Origin: Promethearchaeota archaeon
GTDB lineage: Archaea; Asgardarchaeota; Lokiarchaeia; Sigyniarchaeales; SOKP01
Assembly: GCA_048940925.1 (NCBI GenBank)
Contig: JBHLOC010000059.1
Span: forward strand, 1-24,880
Direction: 5' to 3'
DNA: 24,880 nt
The translations under genes and the position numbers were made by a program. Shown in pieces: positions 463-6,356 of the stretch; the stretch's first letter is position 1, and the number at the start of each line of letters is the position of its first letter. A model generated the notes under the pieces. That model was not told where the DNA came from and did no database searches. It worked only from the letters and a program-made list of their open reading frames with translations.

Positions 463-3393
463 TTGACAAGTCTAACTTTAGATACTGAGAAGATTGAAAG
501 TTTAATTTTAAATGGATATAATGAAAAAGCTTCAGAAGAAATATTTAGAGTAGTTGAAAACTTTCACATTCATAACGATAAAGATCTCATCTATAAAAGT
601 CTTAGTTTTTTGAATCTTATTTGTGATAAATCTCCTTCAATTTCCTTAAGAGCGGTAAAAAATGTAGCGATATTTATAAATGAAACAGACTCTTGGATCA
701 GATTAGTATCCTTAGAGATATTATATCAAATTAGTATGTTTAGACCAAATTTATTAATTGACTTAATTAACAAAATTAGAGGACGTTTATACGATCAAGA
801 TCCATCTGTAAGAAGATTAACAGTGAAAATTATTGGAAATTTAATTTTGTCAATACATATTGATTTAGAGGAATTGCAAGATATAATTGAGGAATTTACC
901 GAGAAATTAATGGATAATGATTGGAAGGTTAAGTTACATGTGATTAAAACAATTCAAAAAATTTTGAACCAAGACTATACTTTAATCAGGGACCTAGAAC
1001 CATTATTATCTATGGTTATTATTAACCTAAGAGATGAAGATGATGATGTTGCTAAAGCAGCCGCAGAACTTTTAAAAATACATGGAACATATTTTCTTTC
1101 TAAAGAAAAACTCTTTTATATTTTGTTAAATCTTCTTTATAATGAAAAGATAAGGGTTAAAGAGCTGATTATATGGTTATTTGGAGAAATTGGAAAAGAA
1201 AAATCCTCAGAAATAATTTCAATAATTCCAAAACTAATCAATCTTTTAAATGAAAAAGATTATCATATTCAATCAACAGTTATTGAAACACTAGTGAATA
1301 TCGCAGAGAATAATTTTGATCAAATATGGGCTAATCTATTAAATTCTTTGCAAAAAAAAGGGAGCTCTTATTTTAAAGATTCAATAATAAACGCAATTTA
1401 TCGACTCTGCCAAAAAAATATCACTGATATATTTTCATATTTATTTGAAGAATTAGAGAACCCTTCTGAAAGTATAAGAGAAGGGATAGCTCTTGTATTT
1501 CAGCGTTTATTTGAAGAATATCAGATCGAGATAGAAAATGAGATATCCAGAATATTATATCAATTAGAATCACGCTACTGGCGAGAAAGAAAAAAAACTA
1601 TTAGTCTATTGCACCAAATTTGCTTTATTTTAAAAGATCATAAGATTGCGGTTTGGATCACTATAGAATTAGAGAAAACTTTAAAAACAGAAAGAGATAT
1701 TGAAGTGAAAGAGGAAATTGTACATACTTTGGATTATATCAGAGAATACTTTAAAGATATTGATAAAACAATTGAGAAAATAAGCAATGAATTAAAATTA
1801 TTTCATAATAAAATCATTAAATTTCAACAAAAACCTGCTCAATTTAGAGAGAAATTAAATTCGTATATTGATAACTTCAAATTTAATGATACAGAAATTC
1901 AATTGAATAGAAGATATAATAATATTTTGAAAAAAATTAAAAATTTCGATAATCTGATTAACAGGTTTGAATATAAACGTTTAGCTTTTGATTTATTTGA
2001 AGAATGGGAAGACTCCAAGGTTCAGGTTATTGAAGAATTAGGTATTATAAAAGGTTTTATCACAGAGATCTGTGAAGAGAAGAAGACTGAATTTCTCTAT
2101 AATTTGAAGGAAAAGATTAAGTTATTGACTAATCGAATTAACATTTTAAAAGCTGAATTTGATTATATCAAAGAGATGAAGTTAGATTTCTCTTCATCCG
2201 AATTCGAGATTAATCAAATTGAAGATGAAAAGTTCGCTTATATTACGCAAGTAAGAAAAAAACTTTTTAAACTTGATGGTGAAATAAGAGAATTATTGAT
2301 AAATAACGTAGAATTTAATGAAATTTTTAAAGATATTTTACGAATATGGGTATCAACTAAAATAGAAATCCAAGAATATTTGAATGAATTAGATCGGCAA
2401 CTTAAAATAATGAAAGACACTTTATTTGAATCCCTTCTACAAAGTGGTGCTAAAATACATGAAAATGGGATAAATGGAATAGATAATGAAGTGGGTTTCC
2501 AGCTTCTTCAAAGTCAGATTCAGTCTATTATTACTGAGAGAATAGAAGGAATTAAGAAATTTAATGATAATTTTGATAACTTAAGTTTTAAACTAGAGTT
2601 TTTAATAAAAAAAAAAGAATTTTCGGATGCTAATAAATTAATAGACATGAATTCAACCCAGATCCAAAATTATATTGAAGAGGTTGAAAAACAGATTGAA
2701 GGTATTATTGGAAAAGAGAAAATGGTGGAAGATAATAATGTTTTCAGTTTGTATGTTAGACCTTATATTAATAAATTCCACGCATCTAAAGAGTTATTAA
2801 TCAATAAATTGAAGAATTTCATTAGAAAAAGCGAAAATAAACTATATCTAAATCAAATTAAATATTATTTGAATATAATAAATCCAATCAAATTAAGTCT
2901 TTTATCTTCCTACGTTAATTTAGATATTGAGCAATTAAAAGATAAAATTCTTAAATTTATAAATAAGAATAAATTAACTGCTAAAATAGTTAATGATAAA
3001 TTGTATTTTCAACAAATTGAATCAGCTATACCTGATTCAAAGGAAATCCTCTTTTTTAAAAATATAAAAACTATCGGAAATGAAATATATTTAAATTTTA
3101 AATTAACTAATCCCTCAAACTTCGGATTTAAGGATCTACAAATCTCACTCAAACTACCTTCATATGTCTCTCTCAAGAGAAAAGAGAGCTTTCCCAAATT
3201 GCTTCAATTAAATGAATTAAAACCGGGGAAAATTTTCAAATTTAATTATGTGTTAAAAATTGATAAGCAAAAAGAGCTTAAAAAGAATCTGTTTGACCCA
3301 ACTGCTGATGAAATTAAGCTTGACTTACATTATAGAGATCAGTTTGATATCGCTCGAAAAACCACTAAACACATTGATCTTTTTATTTCATAA
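463..3393 (+). CDS. Large HEAT-repeat protein with helical mid-region, PCI/winged-helix-like segment and C-terminal Ig-like (adaptin appendage-like) domain
   Basis: 976-aa ORF with TTG start. HEAT repeats such as 'LYDQDPSVRRLTVKII', 'LMDNDWKVKLHVIKTI' and 'LRDEDDDVAKAAAELL'. PCI-like 'PIKLSLLSSYVNLDIEQLKDKILKFINKNKLTAKIVNDKLYF'. Beta-sandwich pattern 'YLNFKLTNPS..FKDLQISLKLP...LNELKPGKIFKFNYVL'. Confidence 0.75.
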   Translation: MTSLTLDTEKIESLILNGYNEKASEEIFRVVENFHIHNDKDLIYKSLSFLNLICDKSPSISLRAVKNVAIFINETDSWIRLVSLEILYQISMFRPNLLIDLINKIRGRLYDQDPSVRRLTVKIIGNLILSIHIDLEELQDIIEEFTEKLMDNDWKVKLHVIKTIQKILNQDYTLIRDLEPLLSMVIINLRDEDDDVAKAAAELLKIHGTYFLSKEKLFYILLNLLYNEKIRVKELIIWLFGEIGKEKSSEIISIIPKLINLLNEKDYHIQSTVIETLVNIAENNFDQIWANLLNSLQKKGSSYFKDSIINAIYRLCQKNITDIFSYLFEELENPSESIREGIALVFQRLFEEYQIEIENEISRILYQLESRYWRERKKTISLLHQICFILKDHKIAVWITIELEKTLKTERDIEVKEEIVHTLDYIREYFKDIDKTIEKISNELKLFHNKIIKFQQKPAQFREKLNSYIDNFKFNDTEIQLNRRYNNILKKIKNFDNLINRFEYKRLAFDLFEEWEDSKVQVIEELGIIKGFITEICEEKKTEFLYNLKEKIKLLTNRINILKAEFDYIKEMKLDFSSSEFEINQIEDEKFAYITQVRKKLFKLDGEIRELLINNVEFNEIFKDILRIWVSTKIEIQEYLNELDRQLKIMKDTLFESLLQSGAKIHENGINGIDNEVGFQLLQSQIQSIITERIEGIKKFNDNFDNLSFKLEFLIKKKEFSDANKLIDMNSTQIQNYIEEVEKQIEGIIGKEKMVEDNNVFSLYVRPYINKFHASKELLINKLKNFIRKSENKLYLNQIKYYLNIINPIKLSLLSSYVNLDIEQLKDKILKFINKNKLTAKIVNDKLYFQQIESAIPDSKEILFFKNIKTIGNEIYLNFKLTNPSNFGFKDLQISLKLPSYVSLKRKESFPKLLQLNELKPGKIFKFNYVLKIDKQKELKKNLFDPTADEIKLDLHYRDQFDIARKTTKHIDLFIS

Positions 3394-3521
3394 GCTTCTC
3401 TCCAAATTTTTTCTTGGCATAAATATTTTCTATCGATTTTTTTAATTTATTATATGCAAAATATTAATAAGTGTCTTTATTCATATACCTAAATAAATTA
3501 TTTAGATGAATGAAAATAATT

Positions 3522-3528: not shown

Positions 3529-4569
3529 ATGATGCAAGAGTTGGAGAATTATCGATTGACATTGCAAACTAAGCTTTTTGGATGAAACTGTAAATTACCT
3601 GCAGAAAAACTTGAACAACTTCTTACAAATGTTGGTTTGAAAGGTGATATAGAGGATTCTGCAATTATCCCTGTGCCTAATAGCAATCTTGTTATGGCAA
3701 AAAATATAGATATCTTTACTCCTATCATTGACGAACCAGAAATCATGGGAGAAATTGCTGCTGCAAATGTTACAAGTGATGTTTTTGCTTTAAATGTTTT
3801 AAATATATCAGGTATGCTGATTTTCTTAGGACTGAATAAAAATATGCCTATGTACATTGCAGAAGGATTACTGAAAGGAATAAAGAATTTCATGGAACGT
3901 AAAATTCAGTCCACAATTCTTGGGGGGCACACAATCTATTCAGAATGGCCATTGATAGGCGGAACCGCCTCAGGGTTCGTTGAAAAAGATAAGCTTATCA
4001 AAAAAGACTTGGTAAAGAATGGTGACAAATTGATATTAACAAAGCCAATTGGAAATCAAGCAATTATGGCGGCATATAGACTACAAAAAGATAATCCTGA
4101 TCTCTTAGAAAATTATTCTATGGTCGAAATTGATAAAGCTATTGATATAGCTGTTGAATTAATGACAACTCCTCTTAAGGATGTTGTAAAAGCAATATAT
4201 TCTTATGAAGATATCTCATTTATTCATTCAATGACGGATGTAAGTGGTTTTGGTCTTGCTGGTCATTTAAAAGAAATGCTACAAAAATCAAATCTTTCAG
4301 CAACTATTAATAGGATTCCAAGTATAATGTTAACAAGTGATTTAGCCTATGAGTTTGGTTACAAATACGATGAATGTGAAATGCCTGAAACTGCTGGTGG
4401 TATGCTTCTTTCTGTAGATCATAGATATGCTGATGAATTCTCCGAGAGATTAACAAATGAATTTGCTGTGTCAAATTGGATTGTAGGCTCAATCGATAAT
4501 CGTAGTAAACCTATGTATGTTCACGTTGCTAAAAATGTTGAGCATATTGAATTAACAAAAATTAAATGA
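3529..4569 (+). CDS. selD: Selenophosphate synthetase (selenide, water dikinase), selenoprotein, paralogue 1; Sec UGA at 3583-3585
   Basis: In-frame with the 3637..4569 ORF: MMQELENYRLTLQTKLFG-U-NCKLPAEKL... SelD motifs: G-U-x-C-K, EDS, NIDIFTP, AANVTSD, GGHT, LTKPIG, MTDVSGFGLAGHL, ETAGGML. SECIS directly downstream. The start could be 3532. Confidence 0.93.
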
Positions 4570-4637
4570 TGTCGATGAAATAAGCAAAAACACATAATTG
4601 TGGCAGCTTATTGAGAATACTGTTGCGTAACAGCATC
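4568..4637 (+). promoter_or_regulatory. SECIS element (eukaryote-like AUGA...GA core) in the 3' UTR of selD1, with basal helix and extra 3' hairpin
   Basis: ATGA(4575-78)-AATAAGC-AAAAA-CACA/TAAT/TGTG-GCA-GCTTATT-GA(4613-14). GATGT(4568-72) pairs with GCATC(4633-37). Hairpin TGTT-GCGT-AACA at 4621-4632. Confidence 0.85.
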
Positions 4638-4869
4638 TAAAAATTGTTATGATTTTTATAAGATTTTTTACTTTTATTATAATACTCTTCTTTTCGATAA
4701 ACCATTTATTTCAATTCAATTTTATTGTTTATCGAAATCTTCTATAAAAGATATCGAAAAGATTAATAAATATACATAAATTTCATTCTTCAGTATATTT
4801 TAAACTTAACGACTTGGAGATAATAAATAGTTTGTTTCAATATTTAAGAATTACGGGAGTTCAGAAAAT

Positions 4870-5226
4870 ATGGTAAAAAAAATAAAAATAAAAAAAATAT
4901 ATTCGATTTTTTATCTAAAGGACAGAAATTATGTTGTGTTTCGTGCGAACTATTCTAAATATGATTTTTTATTCTATAAACACTTAGAAAAAGACATAAA
5001 AGCCTTACTTTTTGGTGAAAATCTTCAAAATGCATTATCTGAAGTTTTGGAAAATCCTGAACTAGAATATGTCGAAATTCTATTAGATAAAATTGTTCAT
5101 GGGGGAGTTTCATATAACGAAGGGGATTTGGTAGAAAGTGATTTTACAAAAAGCAAGGCAAACCAGATTATCTCTAAGTTAAAGAATAAATTAGGTTTTG
5201 ATTCAATTGTAATAGAATTATTTTAG
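4870..5226 (+). CDS. Hypothetical protein between the two selD genes
   Basis: 118-aa ATG ORF preceded by GGGAG, ending 30 nt before selD2. No recognised motif. Confidence 0.65.
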   Translation: MVKKIKIKKIYSIFYLKDRNYVVFRANYSKYDFLFYKHLEKDIKALLFGENLQNALSEVLENPELEYVEILLDKIVHGGVSYNEGDLVESDFTKSKANQIISKLKNKLGFDSIVIELF

Positions 5227-5256
5227 TTTCAATAATATATGAAAAAGTTGAGGTGT

Positions 5257-6285
5257 ATGAAAAAAAATTCGGAATATAGACTAACCACAGATGTAAAAAT
5301 ACACGGATGAAGCTGTAAACTAGGACAAAACGAGTTACATGAATTATTAGCTAAAGTAGGATTAACAGGATATGTTGAAGATGCTGCAGTTATATCCATT
5401 CCTAATAGTGATCTAGTTCTTGTCAAAAACATTGATATTTTTACTCCAATTATAGATGAACCTGAAATAGCAGGTGAAATCGCTGCTTGTAATGTTACTA
5501 ATGATGTATTTGCTATGAATGTACCTGATATATCAGGAATGCTTGTATTTCTAGCAATAAGTACAAGAACTCCAATCGAAGTCGCTGAAGGAATTCTAAA
5601 AGGAATAAAAAACTTTTTAGAGAAAAAAATCAATTCTAAAATAGTAGGTGGACACACAATATATAGTGAATGGCCATTAATTGGTGGTGAGGCTTCCGGA
5701 TATGTTCATAAAGATGCGATTATCCAAAAACAAGGAGTAAAGAAAGGAGATAAGTTAATTTTAACCAAACCAATAGGTTTACAAGCAATTATGGCATCAT
5801 ATAGGCTACTTAAGGATTTTCCGGAAATGTTAGAACATTATTCTATAAATGAGCTCCAAAAATCCATTGATCTTGCGATAAAAATTATGACGACTCCAAA
5901 CCAAGACGTTGTAAAAACTATTCATTCATATAAGGATTTCTCATTTGTTCATGCATTAAGTGATATCACTGGATTTGGATTAGCAGGTCACACAGCCGAA
6001 TTGCTTCAAAATTCTGAATTATCTGCCATAATTGATACAATTCCCTCAATAAAATATTCTAAAGAACTATCTAACGAGTTAGGATATGCGTTTGATGATT
6101 GTTTTTGCCATGAAACTGCGGGTGGAATGTTACTTGCTGTTGATCCCACTAAAGTAGAAAATTTTACGAATGCATTGACTAGCAATAAAATTTCTAACTG
6201 GATTGTGGGTTCAATAGATAAAACTCAACCGGGTCTAGTTAGAGTCGCAGAAAATGTTCAAAATATTGAAATTACAAACATTTAA
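5257..6285 (+). CDS. selD: Selenophosphate synthetase, selenoprotein, paralogue 2; Sec UGA at 5308-5310
   Basis: In-frame with the 5515..6285 ORF: MKKNSEYRLTTDVKIHG-U-SCKLGQNEL... Motifs EDA, NIDIFTP, CNVTND, GGHT, LTKPIG, SDITGFGLAGH, ETAGGML. GAGGTG at 5250-5255. Alternative in-frame ATG at 5239. Confidence 0.93.
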
Positions 6286-6286
6286 A

Positions 6287-6356
6287 GATGTTAATGATAT
6301 AAGCTAAAACATTATTAATGGATGCTTATGGAAATCTCCACCTGCAAGGTGGCATC
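6287..6356 (+). promoter_or_regulatory. SECIS element in the 3' UTR of selD2, same architecture as the selD1 element
   Basis: ATGA(6294-97)-TATAAGC-TAAAA-CATT/ATT/AATG-GAT-GCTTATG-GA(6331-32). GATGT(6287-91) pairs with GCATC(6352-56). Hairpin CACCT-GCA-AGGTG at 6339-6351. Confidence 0.85.

Follow-up and report, generated by a model that had tools for sequence, protein, structure and literature searches.

Selenophosphate synthetase (SelD, or SPS) makes the selenium donor for all selenocysteine (Sec) synthesis and is itself a selenoprotein, so that its own synthesis depends on its own product. Eukaryotes have their closest relatives in the Asgard archaea, whose selD carries, to our knowledge, the most eukaryote-like Sec insertion sequence (SECIS) element among prokaryotes. 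The Sec-containing SPS of Loki archaea and its distinct, type II-like 'SPS lokiSECIS' were described by Mariotti et al. 2016 (PMC4989117). Furthermore, the main text of Huang, Xiao and Zhang 2024 (PMC11227280) reported at least two selD genes in 51 Loki/Thorarchaeia organisms, and it speculated that the extra selD might play a more active part or serve some new function. In metazoans, SPS1 replaces Sec/Cys and loses selenophosphate synthesis (Mariotti et al. 2015, PMC4561486). In the present study, a stretch of 24,880 nucleotides from a Promethearchaeota archaeon of the Lokiarchaeia (contig JBHLOC010000059.1 of assembly GCA_048940925.1; hereafter the window) was analyzed, in which two selD genes lie in tandem on the forward strand. 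The upstream gene was named selD-A and the downstream gene selD-B. The analysis makes it quite likely that they encode two functional SelD isozymes, both selenoproteins, which arose by one old tandem duplication within a single Lokiarchaeia family, with A as the putative accessory copy and a presumably regulatory or kinetic division between the two.

The window pair was compared with the systems described so far. It resembled the Loki SPS of PMC4989117 and PMC11227280 in being Sec-SelD, with the UGA at the homologous position and a type II SECIS in the 3' untranslated region (UTR), in which the AUGA_GA core is combined with a short upper stem, an A-rich bulge and an apical mini-stem. The data set of Huang et al. 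2024 (PMC11227280) contains bin108, a genome of the window's genus, and since that work reports two or more selD genes, the phenomenon itself was already published and its novelty here is weakened. The main texts of the two studies describe neither the tandem A-then-B order, the U-N-C-K and U-S-C-K groups and the single origin of A, nor the equal purifying selection on both copies, the basal helix and side hairpin of the SECIS, and the small gene orf118. Relative to those texts, the new detail lies in the orthologue groups, their origin, selection and synteny, and the linked small gene, whereas the extra copies were known.

The metazoan SPS1/SPS2 genes (PMC4561486) were similar to the window pair in that an ancestral Sec-SPS was duplicated, independently in the two cases, and both copies were long retained. 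They were different in that both copies of the window pair keep Sec-x-Cys-Lys and all catalytic motifs. The SPS1 route leaves one paralogue without Sec/Cys, whereas TGA was present in all A and B copies. The Sec-SelD of Methanococcales (NF010705, PRK14105) is likewise an archaeal Sec enzyme, and it provided the best NCBIfam model with a nearly full-length match, but the window SECIS is eukaryote-like and not of the methanogen GAA_A type. In addition, a bacterial-type oxidoreductase-SelD fusion of one Asgard family (f9) stands as a second selD homologue beside the Sec-type selD in genomes G108 and G214. It differed from the pair in having an open frame of about 750 amino acids (aa) without a stop and about 400 bits to the bacterial-style model, and it was neither in tandem nor a Sec-type paralogue. 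These fusions are probably part of the published count of 'two or more selD'.

The translations of selD-A and selD-B were made with TGA read as U (Sec), and the coordinates are given in Table 1. Codon 18 was the only internal TGA of each gene. The first-pass annotation, which was made from the letters of the window without database searches, had placed an in-frame TGA at the catalytic site of both genes, and this was confirmed. Its start for selD-A, 3529, is indeed the first of two adjacent ATGs, but the relatives and a GAGGTGA ribosome-binding site favour 3532. The spacer from the stop of selD-A to the start of selD-B was 687 nt (702 nt by gene anchors). The two proteins shared 60% identity over their full length, and both possessed AIRS and AIRS_C domains. 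With the TIGR00476 selD model, SelD-A scored 178.8 bits and SelD-B 189.5 bits, both above the curated cut-off of 125, and genome-wide these two were the only selD genes to pass it. A third SelD-like candidate (contig C7) was rejected as a HypE-like AIRS protein without the G-U/C-x-C-K loop. By sequence, the closest solved structures were those of eukaryotic SPS1 (3FD5, 9HJT; E = 2e-36), ahead of bacterial SelD.

The assignment of catalytic residues in SelD comes from published work on the E. coli, Aquifex and human enzymes. The glycine-rich loop G-[U/C]-x-C-K was present at codons 17-21 of both genes, as G-U-N-C-K in A and G-U-S-C-K in B, and was kept in all 93 extracted homologues with the exception of one outgroup, which has V for the second Cys. 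The motifs E-D-x-A, D-x-F-T-P-x-x-D, N-V-T-x-D, G-G-H-T and T-D-x-x-G-F-G were found in both paralogues and in both clade consensuses, and the Asp/Asn motifs aligned to the matching motifs of human SPS1. The earlier statement that the catalytic Lys and Asp motifs are retained was in agreement with this result, all catalytic motifs being present in both copies. Judged by these sequence features, selD-A and selD-B are predicted selenophosphate synthetases, real and functional-looking. Under translation table 11, only N-terminally truncated open reading frames of 310 aa (TTG start) and 256 aa were obtained, so that ordinary gene callers would miss the catalytic loop. The remark in the first-pass annotation that such callers truncate both genes was therefore reasonable.

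Table 1. Coordinates of the two selD genes, their SECIS elements and the neighbouring features in the window, with the bacterial-type SelD fusions of family f9 given by genome and contig.
Feature	Position	Strand	Description
selD-A, derived paralogue	3532..4569	+	345 aa; Sec TGA 3583-3585 (L-F-G-U-N-C-K); stop TGA 4567-4569
SECIS of selD-A (predicted)	4568..4637	+	70 nt; AUGA core 4575-4578; 3' GA 4613-4614; side hairpin 4620-4633
selD-B, ancestral-position paralogue	5257..6285	+	342 aa; Sec TGA 5308-5310 (I-H-G-U-S-C-K); stop TAA
SECIS of selD-B (predicted)	6287..6356	+	70 nt; same architecture; AUGA 6294-6297; 3' GA 6331-6332
Promoter-like region of selD-A	3431..3471	+	one TATCGATT box 3431-3438, then AT-rich TATA-like stretches, about 100 nt before the start; conserved across the genus
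Putative promoter of orf118 and selD-B	4692..4775	+	three TATCGAAA-type boxes (4692-4699 on the reverse strand, 4730-4737, 4752-4759), then a TATA-like stretch
orf118	4870..5226	+	small protein; ends 30 nt upstream of selD-B
Bacterial-type SelD fusions of f9	G108:C6:26638-27561; G214:C4:102337-103260; six other f9 genomes		no in-frame stop

The 3' UTRs of selD-A and selD-B aligned mutually and folded alike. The shared fold consisted of a basal helix (GAUG/CAUC), an AUGA...GA core, an upper stem of 7 bp, an A-rich bulge and an apical mini-stem of 4 bp, and an additional hairpin sat between the 3' GA and the basal helix, giving a three-way junction. Compared with the element of selD-A, that of selD-B showed compensatory changes in the mini-stem and in the side hairpin. 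The SECIS starts 1-2 nt past the stop codon or overlaps it; in selD-A, the stop TGA overlaps GAUG, the 5' strand of its own basal helix (window 4567-4571). In most relatives, the stop of selD-A was TAA, one base upstream of the position of the window's TGA.

Covariation was analyzed with the homologous 3' UTR regions of 74 selD genes of the same family. Standard pairs filled 94% of the cells, 18 of the 20 pairs were changed on both sides, and all four helices covaried. Among the controls, no shuffle out of 500 matched the observed result, and sliding the partners by 1-3 columns left 28-51% of the cells paired. The GA of AUGA and the A of the 3' GA were invariant in the 74 sequences, and the G of the 3' GA was present in at least 90% of them. 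The upper stem measured 6-7 bp (6-15 bp in the Asgard type II pattern) with a nearly invariant AAA bulge, and the mini-stem measured 4 bp (2-8 bp in the pattern), with compensatory changes in three of its four pairs. Both elements fit the published type II selD lokiSECIS pattern and are predicted Sec-insertion signals. The claim that each selD gene has a eukaryote-like SECIS of its own was thus borne out by the covariation of the 70-nt elements. An Rfam scan of the window at a permissive threshold detected no SECIS and no other relevant family.

Three B genes, namely that of genome G013 and two of genus g16, had an unrelated 3' UTR sequence (L061:1227-1317, minus strand; L124:2516-2606; L125:2518-2608). 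In these three, a closing helix CUCCAAA/UUUGGAG and the layout of AUGA, stem, GA and side hairpin were recognized by reading the sequence alone.

The distribution of the pair was studied in the relatives. Two Sec-type selD genes, always on one strand and with A before B, were present in 21 of 24 further species of the genus, and these included two single-contig genomes. Closed genomes among the close relatives include bin108 and bin132. In the genus, the match-to-match distance between A and B was usually about 1.3 kb, and the A-B spacer was 228-365 nt in most relatives. The N-terminal DNA signature of the A type (Y-R-L-T-x6-G-U-[N/D]-C-K) was found, with one match each, in genus g1 (35 of 54 genomes) and genus g14 (23 of 42), and in none of the 39 genomes from the 11 other genera of the family, and a reversed control of the signature gave no match. 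Accordingly, about 60% of the genomes of g1 and g14, both of one Promethearchaeota family, had the A-B pair. Among 201 sampled Asgard genomes, g1 and g14 were likewise the only genera with two Sec-type selD copies.

The TGA was kept in all 29 extracted A copies, in all 64 extracted B or single copies, and in all 58 A-type signature matches of the family. The 17 codons before it were conserved. Since the TGA was conserved despite near-saturated synonymous sites, it is no sequencing error, a possibility that had been raised against the pair at the outset. Selection on the two genes was estimated as the pairwise ratio of nonsynonymous to synonymous substitutions (dN/dS; Nei-Gojobori) from 96 species pairs with dS < 1.5 in both genes. 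The median dN/dS was 0.082 for A and 0.087 for B. Moreover, column entropy and the counts of invariant columns were nearly equal in the A clade and the B clade. Both copies were under purifying selection of equal strength and neither was decaying, and the relaxed selection on one copy that would have spoken against two working genes was not observed. Between A and B within one genome, dS was above 2. The near-fixed differences between A and B were limited to five positions (L/I15, N/S19, S/A43, L/M87 and Q/L185), the first four of which lie in or beside the Sec loop, E-D-x-A and N-V-T-N-D-x-F-A-x-N. At these sites, A and B read U-N-C-K and U-S-C-K, E-D-S-A and E-D-A-A, and F-A-L-N and F-A-M-N, respectively.

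The origin of the duplication was investigated with a maximum-likelihood tree of 93 proteins (29 A; 64 B or single). The family was recovered as a clade (SH-aLRT 99). The 29 A copies were monophyletic, again with a support of 99, and the single-copy selD genes of the other genera clustered with all B copies (93). A had a stem branch of 0.26 substitutions per site, compared with 0.09 for B. In the free tree, A fell outside all B copies, so that the duplication came to lie at the family's base. When A was constrained to group with the B copies of g1, g14, g16 and g18, the tree was better by 18 log-likelihood units (lnL; p-AU 0.79), and the approximately unbiased (AU) test therefore allowed, and even favoured, a duplication that is later than the divergence from g12, g13 and g15. 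Because of this gain, the duplication may be younger than the family, and the early date given by the quick free tree was dropped.

The gene order settled which copy is the ancestral one. The ancestral order was a HEAT-repeat (adaptin-like) gene, selD, and a convergent cinA-like gene, and these flanks were common to the single-copy genera. In the pair, selD-B adjoins the convergent cinA-like gene, and selD-A lies between the HEAT gene and selD-B. Since the synteny slot of B matches that of the ancestral single selD, B is the ancestral-position copy and A the tandem copy. In genomes G014 and G016 the HEAT gene directly adjoins B, which indicates a clean loss of A, and no remnant of A was found in G024. 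No genome had A without B, except G188, where the contig ends. Taken from tree and gene order, A is best described as an old tandem copy that arose once and is dispensable in some lineages.

Several observations were made on the flanks, the spacer and unusual A copies. The HEAT/adaptin-like gene (window 463-3393) was also found immediately upstream of selD in two other families of the order, with 22-29% identity (L023, L027-L029, L037, L075 and L078), and this gene linkage is unusually long-lived. A 429-aa gene of the HGD-D family (2-hydroxyacyl-CoA dehydratase D-component) was located in the A-B spacer of G005, G007 and G229 (L054, L056, L109), and an unrelated reading frame of 472 aa in that of G104 (L105), so the spacer takes varied cargo. 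The A copies of G012 and G204 (L060, L128) formed a long separate branch, had a B-like N-terminus and were nearer to their own B (dS 1.3, versus 2.3-2.5 elsewhere), which may reflect partial gene conversion.

The decoding of Sec in this organism was considered next to the genes. The assembly comprised 4.8 Mb in 90 contigs and was 100% complete by marker genes. The tRNA-Sec scored 63.7 bits (gathering score 47), and SepSecS, located 500 nt from it, scored 484.6 bits against a cut-off of 224.85. ARAGORN found no tRNA in the window. The concern that the genome might lack tRNA-Sec, EFSec and SepSecS was hence removed for tRNA-Sec and SepSecS, while for EFSec there was only an EFSec-like best match below its own cut-off.

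A conserved, AT-rich promoter-like region and a GAGGTG ribosome-binding site preceded each selD gene separately, and each was followed by its own SECIS and then a T-tract. For this reason the pair was read as two active isozymes, and differential regulation of A and B is plausible on the same ground and is our best guess. In the mechanism proposed, selD-A would have been inserted upstream of selD-B, and B would be the positional descendant of the ancestral single gene. Each gene would form its own expression unit, composed of the promoter-like region, the GAGGTG site, the UGA at codon 18 and the 70-nt type II SECIS. The SECIS presumably recruits EFSec and Sec-tRNASec, and UGA-18 would then be read as the catalytic Sec of the G-U-x-C-K loop. 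Both enzymes would make selenophosphate for SepSecS, B as the essential ancestral enzyme and A as an accessory isozyme. The division between them would be regulatory or kinetic, with different expression conditions or a tuned active site for the same reaction.

Some points weigh against this reading. The genome is a metagenome-assembled genome (MAG) with an estimated contamination of 8.4%, yet the pair is on one contig, and the same arrangement was present in closed genomes. The EFSec-like gene, on the contig of tRNA-Sec, was the best match to the SelB model with 240.3 bits against a cut-off of 242.25 that was set on bacterial proteins. The best PSTK-like match reached 139 bits against a cut-off of 290.5, with a model built on other lineages. 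It is plausible that both are candidate orthologues. Furthermore, neither protein reached the cut-off of 291 bits of the archaeal equivalog NF010705 (PRK14105): with Cys in place of Sec, SelD-A scored 269.4 and SelD-B 282.0 bits, and by the NCBI threshold SelD-A and SelD-B are close relatives of this model outside its membership. The phylogeny that had been proposed for dating the duplication agreed with a single and old origin of A, but the duplication node differed between the free and the constrained trees, and the later date may be the right one. Finally, the different roles of A and B are purely what we infer.

SelD enzymes are dimers, and the first-pass annotation had suggested a heterodimer. 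An obligate one, with A and B as two different subunits of one enzyme, would be in accordance with their adjacency on the same strand, with their being kept together in most genomes that have A, and with the finding that no genome has A demonstrably without B (G188 ends at the contig edge). It was nevertheless judged improbable, because B is the sole selD in 11 other genera of the family, because G014, G016 and G024 of the same genus have B only, with the HEAT gene directly beside B in the first two, and because the promoter-like regions and SECIS elements of A and B are separate. The presence of B alone in these 11 genera and three genus members indicates that B works without A, so that the obligate form of the proposal is unlikely for B. 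An optional A-B heterodimer, or an A that depends on B, may exist.

It was also considered whether A has acquired a new function, in which it would provide activated Se (or S) for something other than Sec-tRNA synthesis, for instance for selenouridine, selenoneine, a Se cofactor or another pathway. The accelerated stem branch of A (0.26, compared with 0.09 for B), the A-specific substitutions beside the Sec residue and the Asp motifs, and the restriction of A to some lineages would fit with such a function. We consider it unlikely, however, since A has kept Sec, Cys, Lys and all Asp/Asn motifs with a dN/dS equal to that of B, and since no pathway gene was consistently linked to A, the spacer cargo being variable. 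In addition, selU, YqeB and YqeC were not found in the search of this genome, which is complete by markers (genes for selenoneine were not searched for), and the same absence was described for Loki by Mariotti 2016 (PMC4989117). The separate selenophosphate supply for 2-selenouridine or a Se cofactor, suggested in the first-pass annotation, thus received no support. An artefact, either two strains merged in the MAG or one pseudogene copy whose TGA is a real stop, was brought up by the 8.4% contamination and by the caution of Mariotti 2016 (PMC4989117) on 'apparent paralogues' in metagenomes, but it is hardly credible and was refuted, because both genes lie on one contig about 690 nt apart, A precedes B in dozens of species including single-contig genomes, the two copies form separate orthologue clades with dS > 2, and the codons before the TGA are conserved with a dN/dS of about 0.08 for both copies; the earlier view of two diverged copies and no assembly duplicate therefore stood.

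The regions ahead of the genes were examined for shared signals. In 27 of the 38 genomes from g1 and g14, TATCGA(A/T)A boxes stood ahead of selD-B, and one such box stood ahead of selD-A in part of them, the window included. The selD locus had the only triple cluster of this box in the 4.8-Mb genome. Single boxes were not enriched genome-wide (749 found versus about 800 expected), so no regulon could be shown. The promoter function of the box regions is what we infer from their sequence, and the boxes at both promoters may be the site of a shared regulator.

The small gene orf118 showed no match in Pfam or NCBIfam. Its homologues were found in 14 of 135 genomes of the family, in six genera and with 26-70% identity (L122, L123, L261-L271). 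In 12 of these 14 genomes the gene immediately preceded selD-B, in the same orientation; in the remaining two, the contig ended in one and there was no selD within 2.4 kb in the other. A C-[IL]-E-C motif was present in 11 of the 14 homologues, and both cysteines have been lost from the window copy and the two relatives nearest to it. The AlphaFold2 model of orf118 had a pLDDT of 89.6. Foldseek against the PDB returned nothing for this model at E <= 0.001, and the best Z of a wide VIA-align search was 5.6, inside the noise range stated for the tool. A more specific proposal, which we put forward as tentative and rather doubtful, is that selD-A is specialised, with its own Se donor, partner or condition, that orf118, with C-x-x-C in most members, would be a Se-delivery or regulatory partner of SelD, and that the TATCGA(A/T)A boxes would be the site of a Se- or redox-responsive regulator.

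Small inserts were observed in the selD genes of some relatives. An insert of 31 nt interrupted selD-A of G021 (L066:982-1012; C136:4281-4311) and G088 (L127:1511-1541; C16:19010-19040), one base past the Sec codon. It folded as a bulge-helix-bulge with a 4-bp helix and two 3-nt bulges, with a compensatory change from C-G to U-A between G021 and G088, and excision after the second bulge base restored U-N-C-K. The insert was present in 2 of 135 genomes of the family, and G021 and G088 were not sisters in the A tree or the B tree. The interrupted genes had normal branch lengths, a dN/dS of 0.06-0.10 and an otherwise intact sequence, which indicates that the insert is removed from the mRNA. Very probably, then, it represents an intron of the tRNA type that is spliced out of the mRNA. 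In the literature searched, tRNA-type introns of mRNA were known only from cbf5 of Crenarchaeota (PMC2738675). Furthermore, a 30-nt insert with an in-frame TAA was found in the single selD of the Asgard families f21 and f10 (L135:1821-1850, plus strand; L136:1973-2002, minus strand), and eight genomes of these families had the corresponding pattern of one TGA and one TAA in selD. This insert, too, took the bulge-helix-bulge shape, its inner helix being compensatory, and its removal restored D-V-Y-A-[MI]-G-A. A metagenome scan for further intron-bearing selD-A genes was uninformative because the pattern was too loose, and no selD was among the matches listed.

For the annotation of these MAGs, and for counts of their selenoproteomes, UGA-aware gene calling is needed. 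If the specialisation of selD-A were true, it would be the first subfunctionalisation of SPS in a prokaryote with both copies still selenoproteins. A duplicate pair that retains Sec in both genes is a natural contrast to the SPS1/SPS2 of animals, and it could show how the autocatalytic step of SelD is buffered or regulated.

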